From an uncultured Pseudomonadota bacterium (GTDB taxonomy: Bacteria > Pseudomonadota > Alphaproteobacteria > Rs-D84), in the NCBI GenBank assembly GCA_949298405.1, contig CASFWA010000001.1, forward strand, positions 210,023 through 274,022: a stretch of DNA of 64,000 bases, in the 5' to 3' direction. The translations under genes were made by a program, and so were the position numbers. Each line of letters starts with the position of its first letter. Within the stretch, counting starts at the first letter, position 1. Below are positions 12,809 through 58,512 of the stretch, in pieces. The notes beneath the pieces were generated by a model. That model had not been told where the DNA came from. It did no database searches and saw only the letters and a program-made list of their open reading frames with translations.

Positions 12809-12845
12809 GGTGGTGGTTTTATAAGTTGGCCAGAGGAGAAAATAG

Positions 12846-19250: not shown

Positions 19251-19377
19251 TTGAATCTTGGGAAAAGTTTAGTATTTAGTTGTTGGTTCCCCAGTGAAAA
19301 TATGATAAAATAATATAAAATTGTATAGGTATAAAAAGCCTGACAAAGGTTCGAAAATTCGACCAAATGGGGGAGAA

Positions 19378-34642: not shown

Positions 34643-35590
34643 TTATTTCGTTTTTTCGTTTGAGCCCATAATATTTTTGATTTCATCAACGCAATTATCA
34701 TAGATATTTTTGCGTCCTGTACCCAGATAGTCACGTGGGTTAAAGTTTTCTGGTTTTGTTGCCAATGTTTCGCGAACACCAGCGGTGAATGCTAAGCGGG
34801 AATCGCTGTCCACATTTATTTTGCATATATTCATTTCAACTGCATGACGTAATTGTTCGGCAGGTATACCAAGTGCGTTGGATAGTTTACCGTCATATTC
34901 GTTTATTGTTTTTACAAAGTTTTGCGGAATGCTGGATGCGCCATGTAATACCAATGGAAAATCTGGTAACTGTTTTGCTATTTTTTCTAAAATATCAAAA
35001 CGTAGTTCTTCGTTTTCTGTTTTCCTTTTATATGCACCGTGACTTGTGCCGATTGCAATCGCAAGAGAATCTATATTTGTTGCGTTTACAAAATTTACAA
35101 CGTCATCAGGGTTGGTATAACTAGATTCTGTGTTTTGTGTGTTTTCGTCTTCTATCCCTGAAAGAGTACCTAATTCTGCTTCTACACTTACATCGTATTT
35201 GTGTGCAAAGTCCGCAACTGTTTTTGCTAATTCTATGTTCGCATTAAATGGTAATTTTGACCCGTCTATCATAACACTTGAAAAACCAAGTTTTATAGCA
35301 TTAACGCACGATTCAAAACTGGAACCGTGGTCTAGGTGCAGACTTATTTTTTCTTCCGGTTTTATATGTAAACCCCATATCATACCCATTAGTAGGCTAG
35401 GTCCCATATATTTTAATGCAGATTCTGATACTGCAAGAATGACAGGGCTTTTTGTGTCTCGTGCAGCGGATACAATGGCAGACAATGTTTCCATGTTGTA
35501 AAAGTTGAATGCGGGTACTGCATAATGCTTTGAAATTGCGTCAGAAAAAACTTCTTTTGTATTAACTAAACCGAAATCTTTATAGTCCAT
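34643..35590 (-). CDS. fba: Class II fructose-bisphosphate aldolase
   Basis: MDYKDFGLVNTKEVFSDAISKHYAVPAFNFYNMETLSAIVSAARDTKSPVILAVSE is a class II FBA N-terminus. The Zn-binding His residues (LHLDHG, LVLHGASS) are present. ATG at 35590 with AAGAGGAAG RBS. The six-frame ORF extends further upstream. Confidence 0.85.
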   Translation of the reverse strand: MDYKDFGLVNTKEVFSDAISKHYAVPAFNFYNMETLSAIVSAARDTKSPVILAVSESALKYMGPSLLMGMIWGLHIKPEEKISLHLDHGSSFESCVNAIKLGFSSVMIDGSKLPFNANIELAKTVADFAHKYDVSVEAELGTLSGIEDENTQNTESSYTNPDDVVNFVNATNIDSLAIAIGTSHGAYKRKTENEELRFDILEKIAKQLPDFPLVLHGASSIPQNFVKTINEYDGKLSNALGIPAEQLRHAVEMNICKINVDSDSRLAFTAGVRETLATKPENFNPRDYLGTGRKNIYDNCVDEIKNIMGSNEKTK

Positions 35591-35758
35591 AATGTCTTCC
35601 TCTTTTCTTGGTATTATAGCATAATAAACTTTGCGGTGCGTAAATAAATATAGGAATCTTTTAGTTGACAAATACTTGACAATGAATATTTTTGTGCAAC
35701 AATTATAATACGAATCGGGAGATGGTCTGAGGATAGGCAGAGTTTAAAAGGTGTTATT

Positions 35759-36139: not shown

Positions 36140-36250
36140 GTTTGTTTGCTTGTTATAAAAGCGTCCCTTGGGGCGCTTTTTATTTTTGTATCTTTCTTGA
36201 ATAAAGTGTTTTTTTGTGGTAAAATTACAGAAAAGGAAAAGGGGTTTTAT

Positions 36251-36628
36251 ATGAAAAACTTGTTGAAAAAAATCGGATTTGCTGGCTTGGTTGTTGTTGC
36301 TGGTGGGGCGGCGGCTTTGGCAGCACCTGCGGCAGGCGGTGTTAATAATGCGGGGCTATGCGGCTTAATTGCCCAAATGTACGGTGTGTTTAAAATTCTG
36401 CGTACATTGGCTTTCGTAGGTGCGGCATTTATTATCGCAGGCTGGGCCTGGGGATATATCTCCAAGGGTGAAGTAAAACTTGATGATTTGCAGAAGAAGG
36501 GTACTGGTATGTTGGTCGGTTTTATATTGTTGTTCGGTATCGGTGTAGTTTTGCAATTCTTCTTAAGTTCTGCTGGGTTGGCGGCAATCGGATGCCAAGA
36601 TGTAATTTTGAATTGGGGTAGAATGTAA
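36251..36628 (+). CDS. VirB2/TrbC-like type IV secretion pilin paralog
   Basis: ATG at 36251 with AAAGGAAAAGGGG RBS. Long signal peptide MKNLLKKIGFAGLVVVAGGAAALAAPAAGG followed by two hydrophobic helices separated by a short polar loop (...ISKGEVKLDDLQKKGTG...). This is the VirB2/TrbC fold. Rickettsiales rvh type IV secretion systems are known to carry several scattered virB2 paralogs. Confidence 0.55.
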   Translation: MKNLLKKIGFAGLVVVAGGAAALAAPAAGGVNNAGLCGLIAQMYGVFKILRTLAFVGAAFIIAGWAWGYISKGEVKLDDLQKKGTGMLVGFILLFGIGVVLQFFLSSAGLAAIGCQDVILNWGRM

Positions 36629-36664: not shown

Positions 36665-37612
36665 TTATCTTATTTTTGTGAATGCGAATTGTTTTATAAA
36701 TTCGCGTTCTTTTTTATTTAATTCGGTTTTTACTTCGTTGACTGACTGTTTTTCAATGTCTTGTTCTGGGTATTTGCCTGTCGTCTGAATCATTTTGATT
36801 CTTTGATTATATAATGCTTTAAGTAATATATCGGAAAATTCAGAAAAACTCATTGATGGTTTAGTATCGTGTTGTCTTATTGTCATGTATAATGCTTTCT
36901 GGCGCGCTAATAATGATTCTGCGCCCATATAATTCGCGATAGGGTCGTTGTCTTTTATTGCTATGCCATGAATCTCTTTAAGGGTTTTTGAATCTATGTT
37001 ATAGAAAAATGCGTTTATTCTTGCGTGATTAAATAGTTTCATATTTGCTTTTTTTCTAATTGCAATACCGCTTATTACTTTTTCTGCTTTTGTAAGATTT
37101 TCACGTAAATAGATTCTTGAAAATTTATATGCCATTTCATTTAATTGCTCGAATTTTGTGTTCGGGTTCATGAAATATAGTTGGGCGAAAATCATATAGG
37201 GGTATTGTTTCATTATGCTCCAACAGGCATATCTGCTTAATTTCGCGTCTAAACCTTCTTTTTTATATTTTACACCGTTAGGTGCGTGTATTGAGTAATT
37301 GTTTGTTATAGTTATTATGTGCGATGTTATGAAGTCTTGAAACTTTTCTGGTGATAAAAGATTGGACTCGCCTTTTTGGTGTAGTTTTTTAGGTGTGTGT
37401 CTGGTTATTGCGTTATAAGCAGTTGAATATGCGTTTTTGTGTTCGCCCATTAAATCTTCGCCAAAAAGATTATATAAGTTTGAAAATAGCCAATAATCTG
37501 AAAGTTGAACGGAAAAATCTGTTTCTGGTGAAAATAAATTTGTTTCTTGTTTGGAGCGTAAAATTTGGCCCTGTAAATATTCGTATGTTGTTTTGGCTTG
37601 TGGACGTGGCAT
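36665..37612 (-). CDS. Hypothetical 315-aa protein, immediately downstream of the RHH-like gene
   Basis: ORF 17 nt after the stop of the 37630-37869 gene, so probably co-transcribed. No recognisable catalytic motif. Confidence 0.5.
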   Translation of the reverse strand: MPRPQAKTTYEYLQGQILRSKQETNLFSPETDFSVQLSDYWLFSNLYNLFGEDLMGEHKNAYSTAYNAITRHTPKKLHQKGESNLLSPEKFQDFITSHIITITNNYSIHAPNGVKYKKEGLDAKLSRYACWSIMKQYPYMIFAQLYFMNPNTKFEQLNEMAYKFSRIYLRENLTKAEKVISGIAIRKKANMKLFNHARINAFFYNIDSKTLKEIHGIAIKDNDPIANYMGAESLLARQKALYMTIRQHDTKPSMSFSEFSDILLKALYNQRIKMIQTTGKYPEQDIEKQSVNEVKTELNKKEREFIKQFAFTKIR

Positions 37613-40252: not shown

Positions 40253-40285
40253 AATTTTACCCCCGCAATGGCGGGGGATTTTAGT
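40251..40285. terminator. Bidirectional terminator
   Basis: AAAATTTTACCCCCGC-AATG-GCGGGGGATTTTAG. Confidence 0.7.
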
Positions 40286-40859
40286 TGCTGTAGTAGCAAT
40301 TGCTGGGGGTAAAAACGTATGTCCCTGCACTATCGGATAAATTTGTGTTTGCAGGTATATAACAATTCGTTATTGTTTGGGTTCCTGACGCGGAATTTCC
40401 GGATATGCCATCCAGTGAAGGGCATTTTATGCATCCTGAAGTTCCGTTGGTTGAAGAACCATAATATCCCTCTGCGCATCTGTACTCTGTCTTTTTACTG
40501 CATATGCAGGTTAAGGTATTGCAATTTGCAACAGTTCTTTTTTGGTAGCCGGTTGAATGGTTTGACCAACTGCTTGTTTCGCAATCTGGACAACCAGAAG
40601 AACAATCTGGATATGGCGTACATATTCCTGGAAAACTGTGGGATAAGTCACAATAAAAACCGTTTCTGCAGTCTGTTGTTTCATAGCAAGAACTTCCACT
40701 GCCACCATCTCCGTTCTCTATACATATACCGCTGGAACAATCGGCGTCGAAGACACAAAGGCTTCCATCATCTGGGCCACCAGAACATGTACCAGATAGG
40801 GATTCTGTCGGTACAAATAATATTGTACATAACGTTAGAGGTATAAAAATTTTTTTCAT
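40281..40859 (-). CDS. Secreted Cys-rich protein, paralog of the 33990-34601 product
   Basis: Signal peptide MKKIFIPLTLCTILFVPTESLSG. The C-terminus CIKCPSLDGISGNSASGTQTITNCYIPANTNLSDSAGTYVFTPSNCYYSN aligns with the C-terminal module of the 33990 gene product. Confidence 0.6.
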   Translation of the reverse strand: MKKIFIPLTLCTILFVPTESLSGTCSGGPDDGSLCVFDADCSSGICIENGDGGSGSSCYETTDCRNGFYCDLSHSFPGICTPYPDCSSGCPDCETSSWSNHSTGYQKRTVANCNTLTCICSKKTEYRCAEGYYGSSTNGTSGCIKCPSLDGISGNSASGTQTITNCYIPANTNLSDSAGTYVFTPSNCYYSN

Positions 40860-44085: not shown

Positions 44086-44486
44086 TATTCTTCTACAACT
44101 TTGGTTGTTGCATTTCTATTCTTTGCCCAGACTTCTTCGCCCGTACCTGGATATTGTGGACGTTCCTTGCCATAAGAAATTGTTTTTACTCTTTCTGGTT
44201 CAATTCCTTCTTTTATTAAAACGTGTGCTGCGTTGCCTGCACGTAAAGCGCCCAGAGCCAAGTTGTATTCAGTTGAACCGCGTTCGTCACAATGGCCTTC
44301 CATTATTACATTTATTTCTGGATTTTTTTTCATGTACAATGCTTGTTCGGATAAATTTTCCTGTGAAGCATCACTGATTACAGCAGAATCAAATGCAAAG
44401 AAAACTTTGTCATCGTTAATGTTGCTAGGAACGCTGCTGCATGCTGCTAAACTTATTGTTAGCATACAAAATAGAAATTTTTTCAT
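44085..44486 (-). CDS. pal: Peptidoglycan-associated lipoprotein (OmpA-family)
   Basis: Lipobox MKKFLFCMLTISLAAC. OmpA-like domain with NLALGALRAGNAAHVL and FAFDSAVI. Confidence 0.8.
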   Translation of the reverse strand: MKKFLFCMLTISLAACSSVPSNINDDKVFFAFDSAVISDASQENLSEQALYMKKNPEINVIMEGHCDERGSTEYNLALGALRAGNAAHVLIKEGIEPERVKTISYGKERPQYPGTGEEVWAKNRNATTKVVEE

Positions 44487-44631
44487 TTTTCCCCTCAGTC
44501 TTACTATATTGTGTAATTACCTATATGAAATTTAGCAAATTTTTTTAAAAGATGTCAATATTTTGTTTTTTTATGCTTTGGAATGAATGCCGTTTTGTGA
44601 TAGAATGGGTAAAAAAGTAGGAGTGTTTAAA

Positions 44632-45363
44632 ATGAAAAAAGTTATTTCCGTTTTAGGTTTGTTTAGTTTGGTCGCAACCGCAGCAAATGCGGCACCCAGT
44701 CATATTATGCGTGATTCCAACGGTGGGTATCTTGTCACATATGATTATACGGATAAGGCAAAAACTGGTTGGTATGTCGGTGCGCGCGCAGATTTAAATT
44801 TTCTGAATTGGGAAAATAAATATAGCGTAGATTCTGGGCTGACTGCTTCGGAAGACTATGCTTCGGATAAATATTCTTTTGAACCTGTTTTTGGTGGTAG
44901 TGTTTTTGCAGGTCGTAGTTTCTCATATTTTTGGCGTGCTGAATTAGAAGCAGGTTATATGGGTTATTTCGAAGATAAAGATGGTGAATCTGAATTTACT
45001 ATGCAGATACCTTATTTAATGGTTAATGGATATTATGATTTCACAAATGGTTTGTATTTAGGCGCAGGCGTTGGTGTTGCTATGCCTATTACAACAATTG
45101 ATTTGGGTGCTACTTTGGCTACAACGGATGGAAGTGACCGTAAAGAATATGGTTTTGCACCTATGGCTGGGGTTATGTTGGGATATTCACATAAATTGGA
45201 TGACAATTTAGTTTTAGATGTTCGTTATCGTTTAGCTGGAATGACCGGTTTGGATCAGCGTGTAAATATGTTTATTGAAGGTGAAAATTCTCATTGGTTT
45301 CAAAATGATATAGATTTTATTTTGGATAATTCTATATCAATTGGTTTGAGATATGAATTTTAG
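44632..45363 (+). CDS. Small outer-membrane beta-barrel protein (OmpA/OmpW-like porin family)
   Basis: ATG at 44632 with AGGAG RBS. Signal peptide MKKVISVLGLFSLVATAANA^APS. Alternating amphipathic strands. C-terminal ...IGLRYEF. Confidence 0.65.
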   Translation: MKKVISVLGLFSLVATAANAAPSHIMRDSNGGYLVTYDYTDKAKTGWYVGARADLNFLNWENKYSVDSGLTASEDYASDKYSFEPVFGGSVFAGRSFSYFWRAELEAGYMGYFEDKDGESEFTMQIPYLMVNGYYDFTNGLYLGAGVGVAMPITTIDLGATLATTDGSDRKEYGFAPMAGVMLGYSHKLDDNLVLDVRYRLAGMTGLDQRVNMFIEGENSHWFQNDIDFILDNSISIGLRYEF

Positions 45364-45426
45364 TATAGGAAAACAGTTGACCCGATTCGCAAAAATGTGA
45401 TATTATGTGATACGTAGAGAGAATAA

Positions 45427-47553
45427 ATGAAAAACGAATTAAAAATTTCAACGCTTGCGATAGTTTGTGTGTTGTGTACCGCTTTATCAAGTGCGTATGG
45501 TGCATCTTCTGTACGTTCTTTGGGTGGTACGGGTACTTATAGTAGTGCGTCAAGTGCTAGTGCTGCAAGTTCAAGCAGTACCGCGGCGGCGCGTAGTGGC
45601 TCTGTACGTGTTACACCGACCACGGGTGTTTCAGGTAGTAGTGCAACTAATACTAGTTCAACGAATAGTAGACGCGTTACAACAACACCGCGTTTATCTA
45701 TAGGTAAGTATCTTGGGGGTAGTACTTCTGTTAGTACAGGAAGTTCTTTGCGTCCACAAACACCAAGTGGTGGCTCGTCTTCTGGTGGTGATGGTTCTAT
45801 GGATCCTGAGGTTGCGGCAAATTTGCAAAAAGCAGTTGAGGACTTACAGGATAATATTGTCGACTTGAAAGATGCAGATGATGAGATAAAGGGGTTGTTG
45901 GAAGAAAAACAGAATGCTTTAATTCCGACAGATGATTATATCACTATCGAAAACGATGAAATTTTTGTAAACGTTGATAATTTGAAAGAAGCACTTGCGG
46001 GTGCTACTGGTGAAGATGGTCGTGAAATTGAATTGGATAAGGTTGGCGATTATTTGGTTTGGCGTTATGTAGGTGATAGTTCTTGGAATAATTTAATAGC
46101 TATTGCAGATATTACTGGACCACGAGGTCCCCAAGGTGAAAAAGGTGAACCGGGTGACCCTGCTAATTTGACTGATTATCCTACAAAAACAGATATGGAA
46201 GATGCGATAAGTGCGGCAGTTGATAATTTGGCTGCAACTTATGCAACAAAAGAAGAATTGGCAGATTATGTCAAGACGGAAACTGCAAATGCAATTTATG
46301 CGACAAAAGACGAATTGTCAGGAAAGTTGGATAGTGATGCTTTGGCAGGTTATGCCACAACAGTTGGTGTGCAAACTGCTATTAGGGAAGCGACTGATGG
46401 TTTGGCTACAAGCGCAGAATTAACCACGGGTTTGGCGGGTAAGGCAAATGTTGCTGATGTTTATACTAAATCCGAAGTTTATAATAAAACAGAAGTAAAT
46501 GACCTTGTTGCCGATGTTGCTGCCGGTGATATGCAAGAAGCTTTAAAGGATTATGCAAAAACAAGTGATGTAGAGGCTGGTTTGGCTGAAAAAGCAGATA
46601 AGACTGCATTGGATTCAAAGGCTGACGCAACAGTTGTAGATGCGCTTTCTTCAAAAGTAGATACGATTGGGGTGGCTGCGGATAATGCAGGTCTTGCGGC
46701 GACGGCGGCAGCGGAAACTGCTGGTGCTGCAAAAACAACTGCGGAGGCGGCGCAAGCAATTGCAAATGCTGTTTCGGGTGAAGTAGAAACTGTTAAAACT
46801 ACTGCTGATACGGCTAAAACCACGGCTGATGCAGCAAAGACAGCGGCGGATGAAGCGAAAGAATTGGCAAGCGGGGCAAGTGACGCGGCACAAGCAGCGC
46901 AAGATACTGCGACTGCGGCACAGGACAAAGCGGATGCGGCTGCATTGGCGGTGGCTTCGAAAGCAGATAAGGCCACTACTCTTGCTGGATATGGTATTAC
47001 TGATGCTTATACAAAAACAGAAGTTGACTCTAAAGTAGAAGGCTTGGCGACGGATGCAGATTTGACCGAGTTAGAAGGAAAAGTTCAGACGAATACTTCA
47101 AATATAGGCGCGTTAAAAAACACAGTTGGTGAAGGTGCTTTGACAACTACTGCACAAAACTTGGTTGGTGCGGTTAATGAATTAAAAACCAAGACTGATG
47201 GTATGGCAACTGACGGTAATTTTGAAGAAATGAATAACAAAATTACTCAGATGGAACAGACGGTTAATACTGCGGTTGGGGCTATAGAAGGTAAGGCTGA
47301 TACAACTTATGTTGATGAACAGTTGGCAACAAAAGCAAATACAGCAGATTTAGGTACTTTGGCTACAAAATCTAAAATTACAAATGATGACGTTGCGGAT
47401 GATGCGGCTATTGCACGTACAAAATTAGCAGAGGATGTACAGGCGTCTTTGGATAAGGCAGATGCTGCTATAAGTATGGTTGGTGCAGGAACAGATGCTG
47501 TTTTGGGCGTGGATAGTAACGGTGACAAAGTTTGGTATGAGATAGCATTTTAA
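45427..47553 (+). CDS. Secreted fibrous surface protein 1: Ser/Thr-rich spacer, collagen-like Gly-X-Y run, phage-tail-fibre-like repeats, Ala-rich coiled-coil
   Basis: Signal peptide MKNELKISTLAIVCVLCTALSSAYG^A. 110-aa S/T/G low-complexity region. GPRGPQGEKGEPGDP. Repeats YATKEELADYVKTETANAIYATKDELSGKLD, DKATTLAGYGITDAYTKTEVDSKVEGLATDADL and ARTKLAEDVQASLDKADAA. Confidence 0.7.
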   Translation: MKNELKISTLAIVCVLCTALSSAYGASSVRSLGGTGTYSSASSASAASSSSTAAARSGSVRVTPTTGVSGSSATNTSSTNSRRVTTTPRLSIGKYLGGSTSVSTGSSLRPQTPSGGSSSGGDGSMDPEVAANLQKAVEDLQDNIVDLKDADDEIKGLLEEKQNALIPTDDYITIENDEIFVNVDNLKEALAGATGEDGREIELDKVGDYLVWRYVGDSSWNNLIAIADITGPRGPQGEKGEPGDPANLTDYPTKTDMEDAISAAVDNLAATYATKEELADYVKTETANAIYATKDELSGKLDSDALAGYATTVGVQTAIREATDGLATSAELTTGLAGKANVADVYTKSEVYNKTEVNDLVADVAAGDMQEALKDYAKTSDVEAGLAEKADKTALDSKADATVVDALSSKVDTIGVAADNAGLAATAAAETAGAAKTTAEAAQAIANAVSGEVETVKTTADTAKTTADAAKTAADEAKELASGASDAAQAAQDTATAAQDKADAAALAVASKADKATTLAGYGITDAYTKTEVDSKVEGLATDADLTELEGKVQTNTSNIGALKNTVGEGALTTTAQNLVGAVNELKTKTDGMATDGNFEEMNNKITQMEQTVNTAVGAIEGKADTTYVDEQLATKANTADLGTLATKSKITNDDVADDAAIARTKLAEDVQASLDKADAAISMVGAGTDAVLGVDSNGDKVWYEIAF

Positions 47554-47565
47554 GGGGTTTAAACA

Positions 47566-49410
47566 ATGAAGAAAATAAATTTCATTTTTTCTGGATTTTT
47601 AGCATCATTGTTGCTTGGTGTCGGTAATGTTAATGCTGCAACAAGCGGTGATCCTGTTAGAATTGCTAGTCAAAAATATGTTGATGATAAAGAAACAGCT
47701 ATATTAGAAAATGTAGAACAGAATTATGCCAAACAGGAAACTGTTAATCAAATAACAGAAAATGTTACTACTGTGACACAGCAGGTAACACAGTTAGGTG
47801 ATACGATTAATAATGAAGAAACAGGCCTTGGTGCACAGGTAGAACAGGCTGTTACAGATGCGGCGGCTGCACAAGAAGCAGTTAGCGGTTTAGAAAGTTC
47901 TGTATCGTCTTTGACAGAAACTGTAAATCAAAAAGCAGATGCGGCAGCCCTTGCAACAAAAGAAGATAAGGATAATAAAGCGGCATCTATTACTGCTGAG
48001 AATCAGACTTCTGGTACTGCGTATCCATCTGTTGGTGCAATCGTAGAATGGACAAATAAGAAAATAACAGAATTATCAGATACAGGTTTGCCAGTTAATC
48101 CAGATAATATAAATGATAATTCTATTGCTGGCAGCAAGTTGGAAAATGGCGCAGTTACAACAGATAAAATTGCTGATGAGGCGATAACAGAAGATAAGTT
48201 GAGCCAGGATTTAAGCACAACTATTGCAGGCAAAGAAGATAAGTCCAATAAAACTCAGACTATTGATGAATCTTCTACATCAGAACAATATCCGTCTGCG
48301 GCAGCAGTTCATACGGCGTTGCAGGGTAAGGCAGATACAAGTGTGTTGGAAAATTATGTCACAACAACTGAGGTCGAAGAAATAAATCAGAATATTACAA
48401 ATGTGAAACAGCAGGTGACGCAGTTAGGTGATACAATTAATAATGAAGAAACAGGCCTTGGTGCACAGGTAGAACAGGCTGTTACAGATGCGGCGGCTGC
48501 ACAAGATGCTGTTAGTGGTTTAGAAAGTTCTGTATCATCTTTGGCAGAAACTGTAAGTCAAAAAGCAGATGTGGCAGACTTGGCGAAAAAAGAAGATAAA
48601 GATAATAAAATACAAGAAATAACAGCAGAATCCACTGCGGAACAATATCCTTCTGCGGTTGCGGTTCGTACTGCTTTGGGAGCCAAGGCAGATGCAAGTG
48701 CTGTTGAAAGCATTACACAAAATATAACGAATATAAAACAGCAAGTAGAACAAATTACCGACCCAGAAACTGGTTTGGCTGCTGATGTTGAACAATTACA
48801 GACGGACATTGCTGGTAAAGCAAGTGCAGAATCTGTTGCAACATTAGAAGGAACTGTGACAAGTCAGGGTGGGCGTTTAACAACCGCAGAAGGTGAAATT
48901 GATGCTTTGCAAACGGCTTCTGCAACACATGCGACGACGGCTGCATTAACAGAAGGATTGGCATTGAAAGAAAATGTTGCGAATAAGGCAACGACTATTG
49001 GGACAGATAACCAAAGTTCGCCGACTGTATACCCATCTGTTGGTGCAATCGTAGAATGGACAAATAAGAAAATAACAGAATTATCAGATACGGGCTTGCC
49101 AGTTAATCCAGATAATATAAATGATAATTCTATTGCTGGCAGCAAGTTGGAAAATGGCGCAGTTACAACAGATAAAATTGCTGATAAGGCGGTGACGCAA
49201 GAAAAGTTAAGTGACGATTTAGTTAGTGAAATTTCCGGTAAAGCAAACGTGTCTGACGTTTATACAAAACTGGAAACAAATGAAAAGATTGTGGAACTGG
49301 CGGTGCCTCAACCAGAAGGTGAATGTATGGCAGAATCCGGTTTGTGTGTGTTGTCTGTTGGAACAGACGGGCAGTTCAAATGGGTAAATGTAACAGAGCC
49401 GGCACAATAA
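47566..49410 (+). CDS. Secreted fibrous surface protein 2 (tail-fibre-repeat family, internally duplicated)
   Basis: Signal peptide ...GVGNVNA^ATSGDPVRIASQKYVDDKE. Near-identical internal blocks: QQVTQLGDTINNEETGLGAQVEQAVTDAAAAQ... occurs twice, and SVGAIVEWTNKKITELSDTGLPVNPDNINDNSIAGSKLENGAVTTDKIAD occurs twice. Confidence 0.7.
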   Translation: MKKINFIFSGFLASLLLGVGNVNAATSGDPVRIASQKYVDDKETAILENVEQNYAKQETVNQITENVTTVTQQVTQLGDTINNEETGLGAQVEQAVTDAAAAQEAVSGLESSVSSLTETVNQKADAAALATKEDKDNKAASITAENQTSGTAYPSVGAIVEWTNKKITELSDTGLPVNPDNINDNSIAGSKLENGAVTTDKIADEAITEDKLSQDLSTTIAGKEDKSNKTQTIDESSTSEQYPSAAAVHTALQGKADTSVLENYVTTTEVEEINQNITNVKQQVTQLGDTINNEETGLGAQVEQAVTDAAAAQDAVSGLESSVSSLAETVSQKADVADLAKKEDKDNKIQEITAESTAEQYPSAVAVRTALGAKADASAVESITQNITNIKQQVEQITDPETGLAADVEQLQTDIAGKASAESVATLEGTVTSQGGRLTTAEGEIDALQTASATHATTAALTEGLALKENVANKATTIGTDNQSSPTVYPSVGAIVEWTNKKITELSDTGLPVNPDNINDNSIAGSKLENGAVTTDKIADKAVTQEKLSDDLVSEISGKANVSDVYTKLETNEKIVELAVPQPEGECMAESGLCVLSVGTDGQFKWVNVTEPAQ

Positions 49411-49461
49411 AGAACTAACTAACGAAACTAATTAACTAACAAAACAAAAAAGGAAAGGAAA

Positions 49462-50673
49462 ATGAAAAAACTAACAGCAGGTATATTTGCAACATTATTG
49501 ACAGTTGTCACTGTCGGAGCTGCAAATGCAGAAATCGCATCAAGAACTTATGTTGATGATCAGGTCGGTACAAGAGCCACAACAGCAAGCGTAACTACTT
49601 TGACAGGTCGTGTAGATACTGTAGAAGGTACTGTTACAAGTCAGGGTGGGCGTTTGACAACCGCAGAAGGTGAAATTGATGCTTTGCAAACTGCTTCTGC
49701 AACACATGCGACAACGACTGCATTAACAGAAGGATTGGCAGGTAAGCAGGATAAAGCATTGATTCAATCTGCACAGTATAGTGATAATACGACCAACGAT
49801 ACGTCATATCCATCTGTAAAAGCAGTTGCAGATGCTATCGATAGTGTAACTGGTAATGTGTCTGGCGTTAAAGAAGATGTTACAGAATTACAGGGAACTG
49901 TTGCTGGTTTACAAACAGGTAAAGCAGATAAAGCCACAACATTACAAGGTTATGGTATCACAGATGCTTATACAAAAACAGAAGTAGATTCTGCTTTGGA
50001 TGCAAAAGCAAATACAGCAGATTTGGGCGCTTTGGCAGAAAAAGACACAGTAAGTGCAGCAGATATTGATGCAAACGCTGTCACAACGGCAAAAATTGCA
50101 GATAAAAATGTAACAAAAGCAAAATTGGCAGATGACGTTCAGGCGTCTTTGGGTAAGGCAGATTCTGCTTTGCAACAGGCTGCTTTGGCAGATTATGCAA
50201 AAACTGCAGATGTTGATGCAGATTTGGCGTTGAAGCAAGATAAAACAGATAATACTCTTGCAACTACACAAAAAACAGTTGTTGGTGCTATTAATGAAGT
50301 AAATACTAAAGCAGGAACTGCAGCGGCAGATGCAACACAAGCAAAATCTGATGCAGCACAGGCAAAAACAGATGCAACACAGGCGAAGTCTGATGCAGCA
50401 GCAGCAACGGCTGCAGCAGAAGAAGCAACAACTGCTGCGACAACTGCAACACAGACTGCAACACAGGCAAAGAGTACTGCTGATACAGCAAGTCAAACTG
50501 CAACACAGGCAAAGAGTACTGCTGATACAGCAAGTCAAACTGCAACAGAAGCAAAGGAAGCGGCTTTGGCAGCAATACCAAAACCAACAGATCCTAGTTG
50601 TGAAAACCCAACAAATAAGTGTGTTTTGACTTATAATAACTCTGCTTATGAATGGGAAGTTGTTGCAAGATAA
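49462..50673 (+). CDS. Secreted fibrous surface protein 3 (tail-fibre-repeat family, Ala/Thr tandem repeats)
   Basis: Signal peptide ...VGAANA^EIASRTYVDDQV. Shares TVTSQGGRLTTAEGEIDALQTASATHATT with gene 2 and GYGITDAYTKTEVDS with gene 1. Tandem TATQAKSTADTASQ repeats. Confidence 0.7.
   Translation: MKKLTAGIFATLLTVVTVGAANAEIASRTYVDDQVGTRATTASVTTLTGRVDTVEGTVTSQGGRLTTAEGEIDALQTASATHATTTALTEGLAGKQDKALIQSAQYSDNTTNDTSYPSVKAVADAIDSVTGNVSGVKEDVTELQGTVAGLQTGKADKATTLQGYGITDAYTKTEVDSALDAKANTADLGALAEKDTVSAADIDANAVTTAKIADKNVTKAKLADDVQASLGKADSALQQAALADYAKTADVDADLALKQDKTDNTLATTQKTVVGAINEVNTKAGTAAADATQAKSDAAQAKTDATQAKSDAAAATAAAEEATTAATTATQTATQAKSTADTASQTATQAKSTADTASQTATEAKEAALAAIPKPTDPSCENPTNKCVLTYNNSAYEWEVVAR
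50455..50538 (+). repeat. Exact 42-bp tandem duplication inside fibrous protein gene 3
   Basis: ACTGCAACACAGGCAAAGAGTACTGCTGATACAGCAAGTCAA occurs twice consecutively, encoding TATQAKSTADTASQ x2. Confidence 0.85.
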
Positions 50674-50753
50674 TCTTGTTGGTATCTTGATGTGCGGTAT
50701 TTCATAAATATATCGCACATCAAAAAAAGTTTGCGTGAGTTGCGATTTAGATA

Positions 50754-52457
50754 GTGAAACGAAACAGTTTTTTAGGTAGAATAAAAATGATGAATACAAA
50801 AGGTCTTTTTGCAGTTTCTTTAATAGCAATGCTTGCTATGGGAACAGCTAATGCAGATATCGCATCCAAAAAGTATGTTGATGTACAGGTTGGTGGACGT
50901 TTGTCTAGCATTAGTGGTTCTACCAGTGGAACAGGTAATGTTGTCACTTCGGTTTCTGCTAGTGGTAGCACTGTTTCTGCAACAAAAGGTATAACTGCAG
51001 AAGAAACAAAAAATAAAGTTACAACTGTTCGTGCAACTGCATCTGCAACAGATACGGCTTATCCTTCTGAAAAAGCGGTTGCTACTGCTTTGGCAGGTAA
51101 GGCGGATTCTGCAGATATTCCAACTGTAAATAATGCAACACTGACAATTCAGAAAAATGGTTCTAATGTCGGTACGTTTACTGCAAATGCGGCTTCACCA
51201 GCAACTATCAATATTACAGTACCTACAACAACATCTCAGTTGACTAATAATAGTGGTTTTATTACTGCTGATGATTTGCCAGAAGATTATGTCTTAACTG
51301 CGGCTACATCTGATAAGTTGGGTGGTGTAAAAAGTGGTGGGGATATAACTGTCGGAACAGACGGTACTGTCACAGTAAATAGTGCAACAAGTGCAGATAA
51401 AGCAACAACCGCAACTAGTGCGACTAATGCTACAAATGCAACGAATGCTACAAAAGCAACACAAGACGCATCGGGTAATGTTATTACAACTACTTATGCT
51501 ACGAAGACTGAATTAACTTCTGGGTTGGCAGATAAGGCCAATGTTGATGATTTAGCAACGGTTGCAACATCTGGTTCGTATAATGATTTAACAAATAAAC
51601 CAACTATACCTACTGTGGATTCTGCTTTGAGTTCTTCAAGTACAAACCCTGTTCAGAATAAGGTTATAAATTCTGCTTTGGCAGGTAAGTTAAGTACATC
51701 TGGTACGGCTGCAAAAGCAACTGCAGATGCAAACGGGAATAACATCGTTAATACTTATGCTACAAAAACAGCATTGGCTTCTGTAGAAGCTGATGTTGCT
51801 ACTGCGCAATCTACTGCAGATGATGCGGCAGATGCAGCGGCAAGTGCGCAATCTGCTGCAAATACAAAGGTTGCAAAAGCACAGGGCTCTACGAATGCAA
51901 ATAAAGTTTTAATTACAGATGGGTCGGGTAATGTTGCAACTGGTACTGTCAGCAGTGCTATGATAACAGATGGTACAATAACAAATGCAGATATTTCTTC
52001 TTCGGCTGCAATTGCACAGTCAAAGATATCTGGCTTGACAAATTCGTTAAATGCAAAGGCTAATACCGCGGATTTGGCAGATGTCGCAACGTCTGGTTCT
52101 TATAACGATTTAACTGATAAACCTTCTATCCCTGCTGCAATAACAGTAGATAGCGCTTTAAGCAGTACAAGTACAAATCCTGTTCAGAATAAGGTTATAA
52201 ACACCGCTTTGGCAGGTAAGTTAAGTACAACTGGTACGGCTGCAAAAGCAACCGCAGATGCGAATGGCAATAATATTGCTAGTACTTATGCAACAAAGTC
52301 TCAGATTACTGCTTTGGATAGCACTTCTTCTGGTACAGGGGCCGTTGTCACAGCGGTTTCACAGACTGATGGTAAGGTTTCTGTCACAAAAGGAAATGTT
52401 AAAATCCCTGTTGGCAGTGAAAGTGCTACGACTTATGCAACCATCTGGGTTGAATAG
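50754..52457 (+). CDS. Secreted fibrous surface protein 4 (tail-fibre-repeat family)
   Basis: Signal peptide ...MGTANA^DIASKKYVDVQV. Two copies of ATSGSYNDLTNKPTIP...DSALSS(S/T)STNPVQNKVIN(S/T)ALAGKLST(S/T)GTAAKATADANGNNI, a phage-tail-fibre-type repeat. Confidence 0.7.
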   Translation: MKRNSFLGRIKMMNTKGLFAVSLIAMLAMGTANADIASKKYVDVQVGGRLSSISGSTSGTGNVVTSVSASGSTVSATKGITAEETKNKVTTVRATASATDTAYPSEKAVATALAGKADSADIPTVNNATLTIQKNGSNVGTFTANAASPATINITVPTTTSQLTNNSGFITADDLPEDYVLTAATSDKLGGVKSGGDITVGTDGTVTVNSATSADKATTATSATNATNATNATKATQDASGNVITTTYATKTELTSGLADKANVDDLATVATSGSYNDLTNKPTIPTVDSALSSSSTNPVQNKVINSALAGKLSTSGTAAKATADANGNNIVNTYATKTALASVEADVATAQSTADDAADAAASAQSAANTKVAKAQGSTNANKVLITDGSGNVATGTVSSAMITDGTITNADISSSAAIAQSKISGLTNSLNAKANTADLADVATSGSYNDLTDKPSIPAAITVDSALSSTSTNPVQNKVINTALAGKLSTTGTAAKATADANGNNIASTYATKSQITALDSTSSGTGAVVTAVSQTDGKVSVTKGNVKIPVGSESATTYATIWVE

Positions 52458-52469
52458 TAATAAAATTAT

Positions 52470-52498
52470 AAATCCACCAAAAAGGTGGATTTATTTTT
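52470..52498 (+). terminator. Rho-independent terminator after fibrous protein gene 4
   Basis: ATCCACC-AAAAA-GGTGGAT hairpin followed by TTATTTTT. Confidence 0.75.
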
Positions 52499-52544
52499 CC
52501 CCTTAAAACTTGATTTAATCATCTTTCTTATAATATAATTACCC

Positions 52545-52747
52545 TGCTTTTAAGATTCTTAAAAGCGGACCATGTTAGTAGACGGGTTTAGTCACCCGAA
52601 TATAACAGTTTTAACTAACTTGTTGTCCCGACTTCTCGGTCGGGAAGTCGTTGCTATACAATAACTGCTTTGCGGTAAAGGCAACGAATTCATCGTTATA
52701 TTTGAATGACTAACTTCCCGGCACCTACTTTCATAGGTGTCTTTTTT
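52545..52747 (+). ncRNA. Candidate small RNA (~200 nt) with its own promoter-like and terminator-like elements
   Basis: Upstream TTGATT-18 bp-TATAAT (52509-52538). 5' hairpin GCTTTTAAG-ATTC-TTAAAAGC. Internal helices (CGGGAAGT...ACTTCCCG, CGTTGC...GCAACG). 3' hairpin CACCT-ACTTTCAT-AGGTG followed by CTTTTTTCTTTCTTTTT. Only a 30-codon ORF without RBS is present. Confidence 0.3.
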
Positions 52748-52772
52748 CTTTCTTTTTACACAAGGATAAAAA

Positions 52773-53327
52773 ATGAAAGTACTATTGTCGGGACTATTAT
52801 TCTTTTGTTGGGTTTTATTTCCTAATAATCTTAGAGCAGGGGATTTTATCGGTAATTTAGGGGATATTATTTCTTTTAAAGTTTTGCCTGTTTATTCATT
52901 TGCTGCAACTGTATATAATTCTGATTGGAATACTTGGTATGATTATGACTGGAACGGGTTAAAGCAATTAATTGTTGTTAATTTAATAAAATCAACTGTC
53001 ACAGATACTTTGAAAGAAAATATTTCTGAACAAAGACCTAATAAAAAAGGCTTTGATAGTTTCCCGTCTGGTCATACCGCAAATGCTTTTGCAAATGCGG
53101 CTTTTATACACAGGCGTTATGGTATAAAACAGGCAATTGTTCCTTATGTCTTGGCTTCGTTCGTAGGATATTCAAGAGTACAGTCGCGTTGGCATTATAC
53201 TCATGATGTTCTGGCGGGGGCGGCGGTAGGCTTCTTGTCTGCGTGGATATTTGCAGAAAGAAAGCAGAATATGTTTATTGCTGCAGATACTGAAAGCGTT
53301 GCACTTAGGTTTAGTACCCAGTTTTAA
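52773..53327 (+). CDS. PAP2-family phosphatase (undecaprenyl-diphosphate/lipid phosphatase-like)
   Basis: PAP2 motifs KenisEQRP (KX6RP), PSGHTA and SRVQSRWHYTHDVLAG (SRX5HX3D). Signal/TM N-terminus. Confidence 0.8.
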   Translation: MKVLLSGLLFFCWVLFPNNLRAGDFIGNLGDIISFKVLPVYSFAATVYNSDWNTWYDYDWNGLKQLIVVNLIKSTVTDTLKENISEQRPNKKGFDSFPSGHTANAFANAAFIHRRYGIKQAIVPYVLASFVGYSRVQSRWHYTHDVLAGAAVGFLSAWIFAERKQNMFIAADTESVALRFSTQF

Positions 53328-57513: not shown

Positions 57514-58512
57514 ATGGCTCACCAATTCTTTTTTAATCCTTTTATACTAGATAATCTGCCGGCACCAAGTTCTGGATTTGATGTCGTGCAAGATATATCA
57601 GAACCAAGATTGCGCATGTATATAACTAGCCGTGGTGTAAAAAGTTTCTTTGTTAGAAAACGGGTTCACGGTAAGGACAAAAGAATAATAATAGGTAATT
57701 ATCCTGAAACTGATATAGAAACGGCTAGGGCGGCTGTGCCAAATATTTTACAAGAGGCTGCGAAAAAGAAGCCTATTCGTCATAAAAAAATTTTAATGCG
57801 TAAATTGTTAGATTTATATATGACGAATCGGGTTAGAAGAAATAGTTATTCTTATGATAAATTAGAACGTGCTATTGATAGACATTTAAAAACTTTGTTC
57901 GAAAGATATGTTTCAGAAATTTCTTCTCTGGATATTGCAAATGTTATTAGTGCGATAGAAGGTCGGGCGATTGCAGGTAGAATGCAGGAATTTTTGCAAA
58001 GTGTTTTTAAATATGCTATTGATATTGGATATTCTAAACAGAACCCTGTATTAGGGTTACCGAAGATAGAACAAAAACGTCGCGTTAGACCTTTAAATAA
58101 ATTCGGGTTTAATAAGCTTGTTCGTGTTATAGAAAAAGAAAAAAATCAGAATCTTCGTGCTGCTTTCTTAATGCTGATTTATGGTTTTGCGCCAAAATCA
58201 AAGATTTTTTCTATGCAATGGAAAGACCTTGATTTTAACCATTATACTTGGTGTGACAGACCTTTGTCGGATGCAGCGGTTGTTTTGTTGCAGGATTTAC
58301 CACAAGATAGTAAGTGGGTGTTCCCTGGTCGTGGTAGAGGACATTTAACAGACCCAAGATTAGCATGGAAACATATTGCAGAAAAAGCAGGTATCCCAAA
58401 TTTAACAATGGATGATGTTTATAAGTTTTTATCCCGTCAACTTGTTTGGGCTTCTGATAAAGAAGATTTTAGAGCAAATATGAATGCTGTTATTGATGAT
58501 GTGATGGCCTAA
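57514..58512 (+). pseudogene. Integrase-like protein (P4-type tyrosine recombinase N-terminal arm-binding/SAM-like domains) lacking the catalytic residues; probable mobile-element remnant
   Basis: The N-terminus (FFFNPFILDNLPAPSSGFDVVQDISEPRLRMYITSRGVKSFFVRKRV) matches the integrase arm-binding domain. At the catalytic-domain positions, GFAPKSK replaces the first Arg, MDDVYKFLSRQ replaces HxxR, and the protein ends before the catalytic Tyr. The 332-aa reading frame is intact. Confidence 0.55.

Follow-up and report, generated by a model that had tools for sequence, protein, structure and literature searches.

A conserved chromosomal array of four Sec-exported, phage-tail-fibre-like proteins, likely surface fibres, in gut Alphaproteobacteria related to Ca. 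Enterousia

The explanation that we favor, with moderate confidence, is that the genes g1 to g4 (Table 1) make up a conserved, vertically inherited chromosomal operon of four Sec-exported fibres, which are likely surface fibres for contact with other cells; both surface display and adhesion are what we infer for their products. The host is a reduced-genome gut alphaproteobacterium related to Ca. Enterousia (order Rs-D84). Genomes of Rs-D84 are smaller than 1 Mb and lack biosynthesis and standard transporters, and dependence on partner cells has been proposed (PMC12306168). The gene order FtsX-FtsE-Pal-OMP, g1-g4, (PAP2)-DedA-RbfA-(GNAT)-LepA-FabF is kept in about 20 species-level MAGs from related gut Alphaproteobacteria, among them Ca. 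Enterousia and also a circular genome of 0.96 Mb. In these species, the locus is inherited vertically with the chromosome, in conserved synteny, which fits the suggestion of an earlier, sequence-only reading that this is a domesticated family in a host-associated bacterium. Across the relatives, LepA is 88–94% identical, compared with 30–57% for most of the fibre proteins.

Table 1. Features of the array and its flanks; positions refer to the window, i.e., the whole 64 kb stretch of DNA that was analysed.
Feature	Position	Strand	Description
Outer-membrane beta-barrel protein (OMP) gene	44587-45363	+	258-aa ORF, signal peptide from Met16
Sigma-70-like promoter	45377-45406	+	TTGACC, 18 nt, TATTAT, with TG; 20 nt 5' of g1
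g1	45427-47553	+	ORF, 708 aa
g2	47566-49410	+	ORF, 614 aa
g3	49462-50673	+	ORF, 403 aa
Hypervariable heptad-repeat cassette in g3	50215-50556	+	Tandem repeats and contig comparison
g4	50787-52457; 50754-52457 from GTG	+	ORF, 556 aa; 567 aa from GTG
GC-rich hairpin with flanking A/T runs	52468-52494	.	10 nt past the g4 stop codon

The four consecutive same-strand ORFs at 45427-52457 were confirmed, with 556 or 567 aa for g4; the ATG start of g4 is more likely than the GTG, and the sister contig is called at ATG. The promoter-like site upstream of g1, judged by consensus match alone, agrees at 10 of 12 positions and is joint-best within 44400-52900. The array appears to close with a terminator, as had been stated: the hairpin past g4 has an 11-bp stem, was scored on the minus strand by the terminator scan and reads AAATCCACCAAAAAGGTGGATTTATTTTT on the plus strand. 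It is likely a bidirectional terminator, its use on the plus strand being read from the T-run. To call the four genes paralogous was an overstatement: what they have in common is their architecture and a handful of segments (BLASTP matches of 39–185 aa), and they are separately conserved positions across species, not global paralogs.

The N-termini of all four products fit the Sec-type signal peptides that had been assigned to them, as scored by a heuristic combining K/R count, Kyte-Doolittle hydropathy of a 10-mer and the residues at -3/-1. Each has one or two K/R, a hydrophobic 10-mer (mean Kyte-Doolittle 2.2–2.8) and small residues at -3/-1 (AYG/A, VNA/A, ANA/E and ANA/D in g1 to g4), the signal peptides spanning aa 1–25, 1–24, 1–23 and 1–23, respectively. 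A hydrophobic N-terminus (Kyte-Doolittle >=2.0) is present in all 59 array proteins examined from alphaproteobacterial loci and in only 3 of 82 related viral ORFs, which we read as over-extended ORF starts. Profile searches and inspection of the N-termini of g1–g4 detected no autotransporter barrel, lipobox, sortase-like or known secretion signal.

As judged from their sequences, the shafts would be heptad coiled coils with beta-layer motifs and modules common to phage tail fibres. The 3.5-residue hydrophobic periodicity reaches z = 8–12 in g1 (395–512), g2 (40–135) and g3 (273–371, z = 11.8), bearing out the Ala/Thr-rich heptad-like repeats of the sequence-only reading, and every one of the repeat motifs listed there was located in the four proteins. 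Beta-layers described in the literature for trimeric alpha/beta coiled coils, such as AATKAYVD and VYTKAES of the tail fibre 2C3F from a Streptococcus prophage (PMC4786415), correspond to the array motifs; the sole PDB sequence match is a GCN4 fusion containing KADVYTKDQLYTKTEIN. Since the mosaic of the shaft resembles phage tail-fibre shafts, the proteins are most likely parallel homotrimers. In Pfam and NCBIfam profile searches, g1–g4 had no match to a curated family at the curated cut-off, and the Phage_fiber_2 and Collagen Pfam families, which had been expected, did not match the array proteins. A likeness between the C-terminal cap and the T4 foldon had no statistical support, and their homology is not supported.

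In g1, the signal peptide is followed by a conserved ASSVRSLGGxGTY motif, Ser/Thr/Gly-rich spacers with a conserved RLSIGKYLGG, a short coiled coil, a ~55-aa DGREIEL...W..L..ITGP module containing Gly-X-Y triplets, beta-layer motifs, an Ala-rich heptad coiled coil (aa ~395–512), GYGITDAYTKTEVD (at 521, and at 163 in g3) and a cap ending ...VLGVDSNGDKVWYEIAF. The collagen-like Gly-X-Y run reported earlier is present, in g1 alone, but comprises merely five triplets (aa 231–245) and has no Collagen Pfam match. The beta-layer-type motif occurs five times in g1, compared with 0.48 +/- 0.67 times in shuffled sequences, and YATKEEL and YATKDEL lie at 272 and 291. The N-terminal module of g1 (aa 1–260) is kept in the orthologs and is matched end to end in about 64 of the best 150 representative clusters; the few named matches are "hypothetical protein", mostly from alphaproteobacterial MAGs.

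The shared mature N-terminus proposed for genes 2 to 4, IASxxYVD, was located at positions 33, 25 and 25 of g2, g3 and g4, i.e., beginning at mature residue 9 in g2 and at mature residue 2 in g3 and g4. In g2, IASQKYVD (aa 33) is combined with two large internal duplications, heptad coiled coils, AVTTDKIAD modules (AVTTxKIAD at 196 and 532, and at 206 in g3) and a cap, PQPEGEC..SGLCVLSVGTDGQFKWVNVTEP, that is conserved among orthologs; internal DNA repeats of this gene measure 255 nt (85% identity) and 230 nt (90%). The g3 protein comprises the mature N-terminus EIASRTYVD, a mostly helical shaft with an Ala/Thr heptad coiled coil (aa 273–371) and the C-terminal cap IPKPTDPSC..NKCVLTYNNSAYEWEVVAR, a predicted beta-hairpin. 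Its residues 1–32 are almost invariant in the ortholog alignment, and its AF2 monomer model has a helix at 273–371, mostly with pLDDT >90 (aa ~290–370), and a hairpin at 387–400 with pLDDT ~77. In g4, the mature N-terminus DIASKKYVD precedes Ser/Thr-rich tail-fibre-type modules and a conserved cap, LDSTSSGTGAVVTAVSQTDGKVSVTKGNVKIPVGSESATTYATIWVE; the modules SGSYNDLTNKP (SGSYNDLT[ND]KP at 262 and 436), STNPVQNKVIN (at 285 and 462) and TGTAAKATADANGNNI.TYATK are duplicated internally, and the AF2 monomer model (pLDDT 45) is unusable.

At each position in the array, the N-terminus and a small C-terminal cap are specific and conserved, and the shaft differs widely in length and sequence. Mean pairwise identity is 0.42–0.75 over the first 32 residues, 0.45–0.69 over the last 35 and 0.21–0.34 in between, and lengths range from 311 to 642 aa for g2 and from 420 to 1064 aa for g1. 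The g3 cassette, whose tandem repeats are in frame and have periods of 21 and 42 nt (50329-50556), has been replaced within one species: aligned with a contig of the same species (L001), segment 50215-50499 shows about 75% identity, with gaps, and its flanks 98%. Another segment, with 93.8% nucleotide identity to L004 and flanks at 78–82%, apparently reflects a recent exchange between species, and a 130-nt segment is common to g2 and g3 (92% identical). Copy number and repeats, for which a comparison of related genomes had been suggested, do vary: relatives farther away, Ca. Enterousia among them, have arrays of 6–7 genes, in which g2- and g3-type positions are duplicated.

It is unlikely, in our view, that the g1–g4 products form one composite, segmented appendage, arranged end to end or on a common base like the T4 long tail fibre. 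Four distinct positions in fixed order, conserved ends of their own around a variable shaft, as inter-subunit joints would need, and a long anchor-like N-terminal module in g1 alone are all compatible with such an assembly, but export and trimerisation explain the conserved ends equally well, and the larger arrays with duplicated positions better fit a family of alternative fibres. Profile searches of g1–g4 revealed no recognizable ligand-binding or lectin-like tip domain which, together with the conserved C-termini, weakens the case for a specific adhesin. The same features, conserved tips, variable shafts and no detected lectin-like domain, along with the Ala/Thr/Ser-rich composition (30–46% of residues across the relatives examined), would suit a non-adhesive surface coat, that is, a dense, antigenically varying brush that evades phages, IgA or predators and has no specific partner. 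We regard this as quite unlikely. The proposed partner-cell dependence of the clade favors a contact function, although nothing specific speaks against a coat. The coat overlaps with the surface fibres that we prefer and differs from them in function alone.

The tail-fibre type of the repeat modules, recognized earlier by eye, holds for g4, the sole array gene used as a query in the module scan of the viral collections. Its modules occur in at least 359 IMG/VR stretches and in annotated tail-fibre genes of phiRSL1 and PA5oct-like phages, residues ~100–540 match viral contigs and annotated phage tail fibres, and viral ORFs sharing the modules match PHROG tail-fibre families; g1–g3 have weak PHROG tail matches. 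The last ~35 residues of g4 were not found in the viral loci fetched, and no IMG/VR contig encodes a g3 relative with the conserved N-terminus. The shared modules, along with an integrase-like ORF 5 kb downstream, might point to a remnant of a prophage, tailocin or gene-transfer agent in which the tail-fibre genes survived. Such an origin is very improbable: signal peptides are present in all four proteins and absent from the viral relatives, chromosomal position and gene order are constant in ~20 species, the conserved N-terminus is not seen in IMG/VR, and the integrase-like ORF has no catalytic-domain match and is syntenic in all relatives. In agreement with the earlier statement, Pfam scans of ORFs >=150 aa (several of which are matchless) found no phage structural or other phage genes in the 64 kb window, the matches being to housekeeping families only, including dnaA, dnaN, gyrB and tolB. 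The array is not a prophage; its housekeeping neighborhood is fixed.

Sec being the sole export signal detected, a periplasmic location would follow by itself, and there is a small but appreciable chance that the proteins are periplasmic or envelope-structural fibres, coiled-coil trimers that serve as spacers, tethers or a filament (cf. Lpp or CrvA). The locus lies amid envelope genes (tolB, pal, ftsEX and an asmA-family gene), the Lpp/OprI alanine zipper yields weak, sub-threshold profile matches, and the paired Cys of the g2 and g3 caps would suit folding in the periplasm. However, a lipobox is missing, 400–1000 residues of extended coiled coil would measure tens of nm, i.e., several periplasm widths, and periplasmic structural proteins are not expected to be so variable, to exchange modules with phage fibres or to undergo replacement between species.

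The closest known concept to the proposed surface fibres is that of the mosaic adhesive trimer (MAT) fibres of Bdellovibrio bacteriovorus, phage-like trimeric fibres with signal peptides whose presence on the cell surface has been demonstrated (Caulton et al., 2024, PMC10769870). Both groups consist of bacterial, non-virion proteins in which a signal peptide precedes a long phage-tail-fibre-like fibre, and both are multi-copy families with mosaic evolution, in a bacterium that lives off other cells in the MAT case and is proposed to depend on them here. Going by their descriptions, the MAT proteins are nevertheless set apart by a conserved ~130-aa beta-rich N-terminal domain, an architecture absent from the array, where the mature N-terminus of g2–g4 would lead straight into coiled coil. 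MAT shafts are beta-prism or beta-helix, whereas those of the array appear to be largely alpha/beta coiled coil; the C-terminal tips of MAT proteins are variable (S74 protease, TNF-like, lectin), whereas array caps are conserved and the shaft varies; and MAT genes are dispersed, whereas the array is one syntenic operon. Phage tail fibres and fibritin-type proteins (2C3F, phiRSL1, PA5oct, T4 fibritin) have in common with the array sequence modules, beta-layer motifs and a general plan, a shaft of coiled coil or beta structure with a small element at its C-terminal end, but they lack signal peptides and are encoded within structural modules, the opposite of the array genes on both counts. The phage N-terminal baseplate-attachment region is missing from the array proteins, and phage receptor-binding proteins have variable C-termini, unlike the conserved ones here. 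Trimeric autotransporter adhesins (type Vc; YadA, BadA, OMP100) resemble the array in joining a signal peptide to a long stalk with beta-layer motifs, and they function as adhesins (PMC4786415). However, no YadA-type C-terminal membrane anchor, head or neck domain had a Pfam match in the array proteins even at E = 1, and the C-terminus past the last helix, ~30 residues, charged and Cys-braced, lacks such an anchor. Lcl of the Gram-negative Legionella, like other bacterial collagen-like proteins, is a trimeric fibrous adhesin that is exported by Sec and needs no autotransporter domain to arrive at the surface; the array differs from these proteins in having only the short Gly-X-Y run of g1.

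We propose that each precursor would pass Sec unfolded and be cleaved by signal peptidase I. Mature g2–g4 would open with the IASxxYVD beta-layer capping a coiled coil, and the shaft would continue as a mosaic of heptad coiled coil, beta-layer hexads/nonads (YATKEEL, VYTKSEV, AYTKTEV) and Ser/Thr-rich modules. The position-specific C-terminal cap, in g2 and g3 a putative Cys-Cys-braced beta-hairpin, probably sets the chain register and locks the chains after complete export. The constant ends would serve export, assembly and retention, and the shaft would be free to vary by slippage of heptad units, segment exchange among the four genes, exchange between species and module sharing with the gut phage gene pool. 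The fibres would most likely be surface-displayed and bring the cell into contact with partner cells, host mucus or particles. Candidates in the window for crossing of, or attachment to, the outer membrane include a type IVb-pilus-like secretin and the adjoining OMP gene.

In most related loci that were retrieved, the OMP gene lies directly upstream of the array, and this adjacency makes its product a possible partner or anchor of the fibres. Its C-terminus, GLRYEF, is typical of OMPs, and the protein has weak matches to Opacity-porin (Pfam, E 4.5e-4) and Rickettsia Adr (NCBIfam, E 8.7e-5). When the two closest relatives are set aside, the copies in the other loci are 40–71% identical to that of the window, compared with 81–89% for FtsE.

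The four fibre genes (g1 to g4 in their order along the array) belong to a locus whose organization is conserved in about 20 loci of related metagenome-assembled genomes (MAGs). In all of these, genes for a PlsC-like protein, DUF218, FtsX, FtsE, Pal and an outer-membrane protein (OMP) precede the fibre genes, in this order, and (PAP2), DedA, RbfA, (GNAT), LepA, an integrase-like ORF and FabF follow them. The flanking proteins are 82-94% identical to those of the window (LepA of related MAGs, 88-94%) and most of the fibre proteins are 30-57% identical. Two ENA gut-metagenome contigs encode a LepA identical to that of the window, and one of these, from the same species (L001), carries the same four genes, of 708, 607, 391 and 556 aa. 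Pfam scans of the window ORFs of at least 150 aa, several of which gave no match at all, recovered dnaA, dnaN, gyrB, uvrC, EF-P, SufB, GatAB, TolB, the AsmA family and other housekeeping functions, and no portal, capsid, tape-measure, baseplate or sheath genes. Because synteny is conserved in about 20 species and only housekeeping families are matched in the window, the locus is a core chromosomal feature of the lineage; the prophage assignment is accordingly rejected, in agreement with the sequence-only reading, which had noted the lack of phage structural genes nearby. The observation is thus real and does not represent an ordinary prophage. A role as a virion tail fibre was likewise discarded, given that the genes lie outside any phage, prophage or tailocin module and that their products have putative signal peptides, unlike cytoplasmically assembled fibres. 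Since dnaA, gyrB and dnaN are all found in the window, the fibre operon, located ~27 kb from dnaA, is probably close to the replication origin.

When a single genome from each GTDB species was scanned, all full-length relatives of g4 came from MAGs with the label uncultured Alphaproteobacteria or Proteobacteria, among them a circular chromosome (OZ007020.1, 958,618 bp), and the more distant matches came from Candidatus Enterousia. The latter belongs to the order Rs-D84, whose members, with genomes below 1 Mb, have no biosynthesis of amino acids, nucleotides or lipids and no standard transporters; an obligate symbiotic or parasitic life on other cells has been proposed for them (PMC12306168). 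The window is linked to this order by synteny and by the LepA identity of 88-94%.

The integrase-like ORF of the right flank (57514-58512) matches the Arm-DNA-binding and phage-integrase central domains, with no catalytic-domain match. It is syntenic in all relatives (65-74% identity) and hence no recent mobile element, but perhaps a recombinase that has degenerated or been repurposed. The array also differs in composition, with a GC content (46001-52000) of 0.40-0.42 versus 0.36-0.38 and an AT skew of +0.14 to +0.21 versus negative values in the flanks, which we attribute to Ala/Thr/Ser/Lys-rich coding rather than to foreign origin.

Features of the fibre locus, with the conserved ends of the four proteins (/, putative signal-peptide cleavage site; positions refer to the window unless a related locus is named)
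Feature	Position	Strand	Description
dnaA	17964-19250		in window
gyrB	21334-23313	-	in window
dnaN	31207-32325		in window
sigma-70-like site	45377-45406	+	best match of the region, directly before g1
g1	45427-47553	+	ORF, 708 aa
g1 N-terminus			MKNxLKISxLAIVCVLCTAVSGAYG/ASSVRSLGGSGTY..., then ~250-aa conserved composite module
g1 cap			...VLGTDxxGxKVWYEI
g2	47566-49410	+	ORF, 614 aa
g2 N-terminus			MKKxNIVFSGFMAAIL...ANA/ATxIASKQYVD
g2 cap			IPKPxxxCxxxSxLCVLSVxxDGxxxWVNVTxP
g3	49462-50673	+	ORF, 403 aa
g3 N-terminus			MKKLTAGIFATLLxVVSVGAANA/EIASKGYVD
g3 cap			AIPKPxGxCxxPxNKCVLTxNNSxYxWEVIxR
g4	50754-52457	+	ORF, 567 aa from GTG; ATG at 50787 gives 556 aa
g4 N-terminus			MxKxKGIFAVSFIAM...ANA/DIASxGYVD
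g4 cap			LDSTSSGTGAVVTxVSQTDGKVSVTKGNVKIPVGSxxATxYATIWVE
expanded arrays	L022 2505-11578; L031 677-12211; L074 5865-11098		signal peptide, [IV]ASxxYV start, W-containing cap

The genes are separated by gaps of 12, 51 and about 80-113 nt; for g4, the ATG start, which is the one called on the sister contig, is more likely than the upstream GTG. An 11-bp GC-rich hairpin (52468-52494) follows g4, supporting the proposed terminator at the end of the array. As to the ribosome-binding sites proposed for each gene, a purine-rich Shine-Dalgarno-like stretch precedes most of the starts. The four genes had also been described as paralogous; they are not global paralogs, given that BLASTP among the proteins yields only segmental matches of 39-185 residues.

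All four N-termini consist of 1-2 Lys/Arg residues and a hydrophobic stretch (mean Kyte-Doolittle hydropathy of 2.2-2.8 over 10 residues), followed by small-residue -3/-1 sites, namely AYG/A in g1, VNA/A in g2, ANA/E in g3 and ANA/D in g4. By this heuristic scoring of charge, hydrophobicity and -3/-1 residues, the assignment of Sec-type signal peptides is upheld for all four proteins, and the hydrophobic segment is present in 59 of the 59 array proteins of the alphaproteobacterial loci. The same crude hydrophobicity threshold is passed by only 3 of 82 related viral ORFs, which we read as over-extended ORF starts; the remaining viral N-termini are of the ordinary phage-fibre type, without a hydrophobic segment. 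The alternative that the g1 signal peptide is that of a lipoprotein was rejected, since it lacks a lipobox and its Cys residues are missing in some orthologs.

Across species, the N-terminus and the C-terminal cap are conserved and specific to each of the four positions in the array: mean pairwise identity is 0.42-0.75 in the first 32 residues and 0.45-0.69 in the last 35, but only 0.21-0.34 between the ends. In the mature g3 and g4 proteins, the IASxxYVD motif begins at residue 2, in mature g2 at residue 9, and it leads into a helix. In g1, its place is taken by a Ser/Thr/Gly-rich, low-complexity module, which matches end to end ~64 of the best 150 representative clusters (50% identity); the few named matches are all "hypothetical protein", mostly from Alphaproteobacteria MAGs. 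The caps are ~30-45 aa long, polar or charged, and predicted to form a two-stranded hairpin. None of them turned up in the viral loci fetched, and a scan of IMG/VR contigs with the g3 profile gave pattern matches only, with no confirmed relative carrying the conserved N-terminus. The cap profile had no match in the PDB. Homology to the T4 fibritin foldon was rejected (hhalign of the cap alignment against the foldon sequence, probability 0.7%); the resemblance to T4 fibritin is one of analogy only, in that a long helix precedes a predicted hairpin, an arrangement that on the g3 side comes from an AlphaFold2 (AF2) model.

The variable shafts between these ends contain modules of the tail-fibre type, as the sequence-only reading had proposed, and the motifs listed there were all located at defined positions. 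The g1-g3 proteins match PHROG tail and tail-fibre families (E of 5e-8 to 2e-3), and g4 matches phrog_17509 (function unknown), which is also matched by viral tail-fibre ORFs; the related viral ORFs themselves match PHROG tail-fibre families with E = 1e-8 to 1e-25. On IMG/VR viral contigs, at least 359 stretches are similar to residues ~100-540 of g4, and an 84-aa module of this protein matches annotated tail fibre and minor tail protein genes of phiRSL1, PA5oct and related phages in INPHARED, as well as an ORF of a crAss-like phage. Whole-protein tblastn searches of INPHARED phages with g3 and g4 gave no match at E <= 1e-5, perhaps owing to low-complexity filtering. The expected Pfam families did not materialize: against Pfam and NCBIfam, nothing in g1-g4 reached a curated cut-off, and only weak coiled-coil noise was detected.

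Hexad and nonad motifs are known to form beta-layers in trimeric alpha/beta coiled coils of trimeric autotransporter adhesin (TAA) stalks and phage fibres, for example, MATKDD, or, in the tail fibre 2C3F of a Streptococcus prophage, VYTKAES and AATKAYVD (Hartmann et al. 2016, PMC4786415). The IASxxYVD motif at the mature N-termini of g2-g4 corresponds to the AATKAYVD layer between beta structure and coiled coil, and YATKEEL, VYTKSEV and AYTKTEV correspond to internal beta-layers. Because of this correspondence, we infer from the sequences that g1-g4 would form parallel homotrimers. Beta-layer-type heptapeptides occur 5 times in g1 versus 0.5 expected, three long segments show a 3.5-residue hydrophobic periodicity (z = 8-12), and the sole PDB sequence match in searches with g1, g2 and g4 is a GCN4 beta-layer fusion (7OAA) carrying KADVYTKDQLYTKTEIN (E = 0.04). 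The AF2 monomer model of g3, built from a 31-sequence alignment and usable for secondary structure only, consists of long helices, including helix 273-371 (mostly pLDDT >90 at residues ~290-370) followed by a short beta-hairpin at 387-400; a Foldseek search of the PDB with this model gave no match below E = 6. The g4 monomer model (pLDDT 45) is unusable.

Residues ~189-245 of g1 (window 45991-46161) contain a ~55-aa module, DGREIELDKVGDYLVWRYVGDSSWNNLIAIADITGPRGPQGEKGEPG, which also matches phrog_19976 ("tail assembly protein") and is repeated, with up to 17 copies each, in unrelated giant proteins as long as 4092 aa; the whole 260-aa g1 N-terminal query gave 2418 library matches at E <= 1e-3. 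This module has the appearance of an uncatalogued repeat unit at which collagen-like runs nucleate. The collagen-like run reported earlier is indeed present in g1 but amounts to just 5 Gly-X-Y triplets (residues 231-245), with no match to PF01391 among the window proteins, on which grounds membership in the collagen-like proteins (Scl, Bcl, Lcl) was rejected. Some orthologs and extra paralogs have longer Gly-X-Y runs; in particular, two of the related loci (L024 and L025) encode an additional g1-like protein with a long collagen run.

The comparison of related genomes bears out the expected variation in copy number, repeats and length. Ortholog lengths range from 420 to 1064 aa for g1, 311 to 642 for g2, 344 to 467 for g3 and 293 to 736 for g4, and copy number varies between lineages, given that more distant relatives (Ca. 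Enterousia, sheep and roe-deer MAGs) carry 6-7 tandem genes of the same plan. At the DNA level, repeats are found within g2 (255 nt at 85% and 230 nt at 90%) and g4 (155 nt at 85%), and the heptad region of g3 contains in-frame 21- and 42-nt tandem repeats (50329-50556). Segments are also shared between g2 and g3 (130 nt at 92%) and between g1 and g3 (72 nt at 82%), which indicates exchange within the array. In the same-species contig, 98% identical overall, it is exactly the heptad region of g3 (50215-50499) that is replaced by a sequence of about 75% identity with gaps. The locus of another related MAG, L004, has flanks of 78-82% DNA identity and a segment of 93.8% identity (47929-51514; L004 7185-10728) that spans the 3' part of g2, all of g3 and the 5' part of g4. 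Because this fibre segment exceeds the flanks in similarity, yet the fibre genes are the most divergent of the locus in every other comparison, recent inter-species exchange of part of the operon is the best explanation. The combination of constant ends with a variable, recombining middle is typical of exposed structures under diversifying selection.

Among known systems, the closest concept is that of the Bdellovibrio mosaic adhesive trimer (MAT) fibres, phage-like, trimeric, mosaic, multi-copy proteins with a signal peptide that have been shown on the predator surface (PMC10769870). The signal peptide, the long phage-like fibre and the presence of several copies are features of g1-g4 as well, but membership in this family is not supported by the comparison of architectures: in MAT fibres, the signal peptide is followed by a ~130-aa beta-rich domain, whereas in g2-g4 the beta-layer and helix follow directly, and MAT fibres have variable tips or an S74 domain, whereas g1-g4 combine conserved caps with a variable shaft and have no Pfam match to Peptidase_S74 or another tip domain. 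With TAAs (type Vc), g1-g4 may share the grammar of the stalk, heptad periodicity and beta-layer-like motifs being present; this assignment was rejected for lack of the YadA-like 12-stranded beta-barrel anchor (PF03895) in Pfam and NCBIfam searches. Alanine-zipper lipoproteins of the Lpp/OprI type were rejected on sub-cut-off scores (19.4 and 16.0 versus 23.1 bits; 18.1 versus 43) and the lack of a lipobox. Literature searches, including those for literal motifs, exported tail-fibre-like symbiont proteins and Rs-D84, found no paper on these genes; the exact g2 sequence has no database record, and none of the NCBI clusters of 10 relatives is named. The operon is an uncharacterized, lineage-wide one that encodes exported fibres made of phage-fibre-type modules.

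We propose that the precursors would be exported via Sec and cleaved by SPase I, and that the mature chains would form homotrimeric fibres of alpha/beta coiled coils and beta-modules. The caps could set the register or trimerize once the chain leaves the Sec channel, N-to-C, with the cap hairpin of g2 and g3 possibly braced by a periplasmic disulfide. The fibres would then be displayed on the cell surface and might mediate contact with partner cells or host material. That g1-g4 are exported, non-phage, chromosomal fibre proteins appears highly probable, and the full explanation, a chromosomal operon of Sec-exported, surface-displayed contact fibres, seems to us reasonably likely. A broader scenario, in which gut alphaproteobacteria of the Rs-D84 type, obligately dependent on partner cells, fused Sec signals and lineage-specific caps to phage shaft modules to obtain a cell-to-cell attachment apparatus retuned via module swaps with gut phages and with each other, is speculative and rather doubtful; under it, the operon would be the cellular counterpart of a phage host-range determinant that sets the partner cells, and the four proteins might form one composite fibre.

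Two candidate routes across the outer membrane are suggested by gene location. The OMP gene always found before g1 encodes a fast-evolving beta-barrel ending in GLRYEF and is a candidate by adjacency. The other candidate, by presence in the window, is a TcpQ-like gene (PF10671, E 3.7e-18) followed by a secretin (PF00263) at 11882-14474; in NCBIfam, the secretin scores best against the PilN-family type IVb pilus outer-membrane protein (235 bits, short of the equivalog cut-off). A DprA gene (16621-17643) is located near this pair. Retention of a secretin in a reduced genome suggests a pilus, competence or secretion apparatus, and folded fibres could conceivably cross the outer membrane through it.

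Alphaproteobacteria of the Rs-D84 type occur widely in the guts of humans and animals, with genomes below 1 Mb and a presumed lifestyle of living off other cells. The operon is conserved and takes up ~7 kb of a genome of roughly 0.9-1 Mb; because it evolves as expected of a contact or antigenic determinant, it is the obvious contact candidate in bacteria that presumably depend on touching other cells for their lifestyle. It would be the second, independent case, after the Bdellovibrio MAT fibres, of phage-fibre building blocks on the surface of the bacterium itself. Several of the sequence modules and the end-caps fall outside all Pfam and NCBIfam models, and the four proteins with constant ends are concrete targets for antibodies, FISH-coupled imaging, metaproteomics and binding assays.

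Two further observations concern other genes of the window. A class II fructose-bisphosphate-aldolase family gene (34643-35671, minus strand; PF01116, E 6.5e-92) has a 71% homolog in the Ca. Enterousia locus L070, whereas the published survey describes Rs-D84 genomes as lacking FBP aldolase (PMC12306168); the gene may encode an aldolase of the tagatose type, or it could have been overlooked in that survey. Eight sizeable ORFs gave no Pfam match (16-1560, 8159-9085, 11149-11697, 15683-16525, 19321-20658, 36146-36628, 36665-37612 and 40281-40859), with a weak DinD-like NCBIfam match for 36665-37612 and a faint GltG-like one for 15683-16525; they could encode proteins specific to the lineage, possibly envelope proteins, in this reduced genome.
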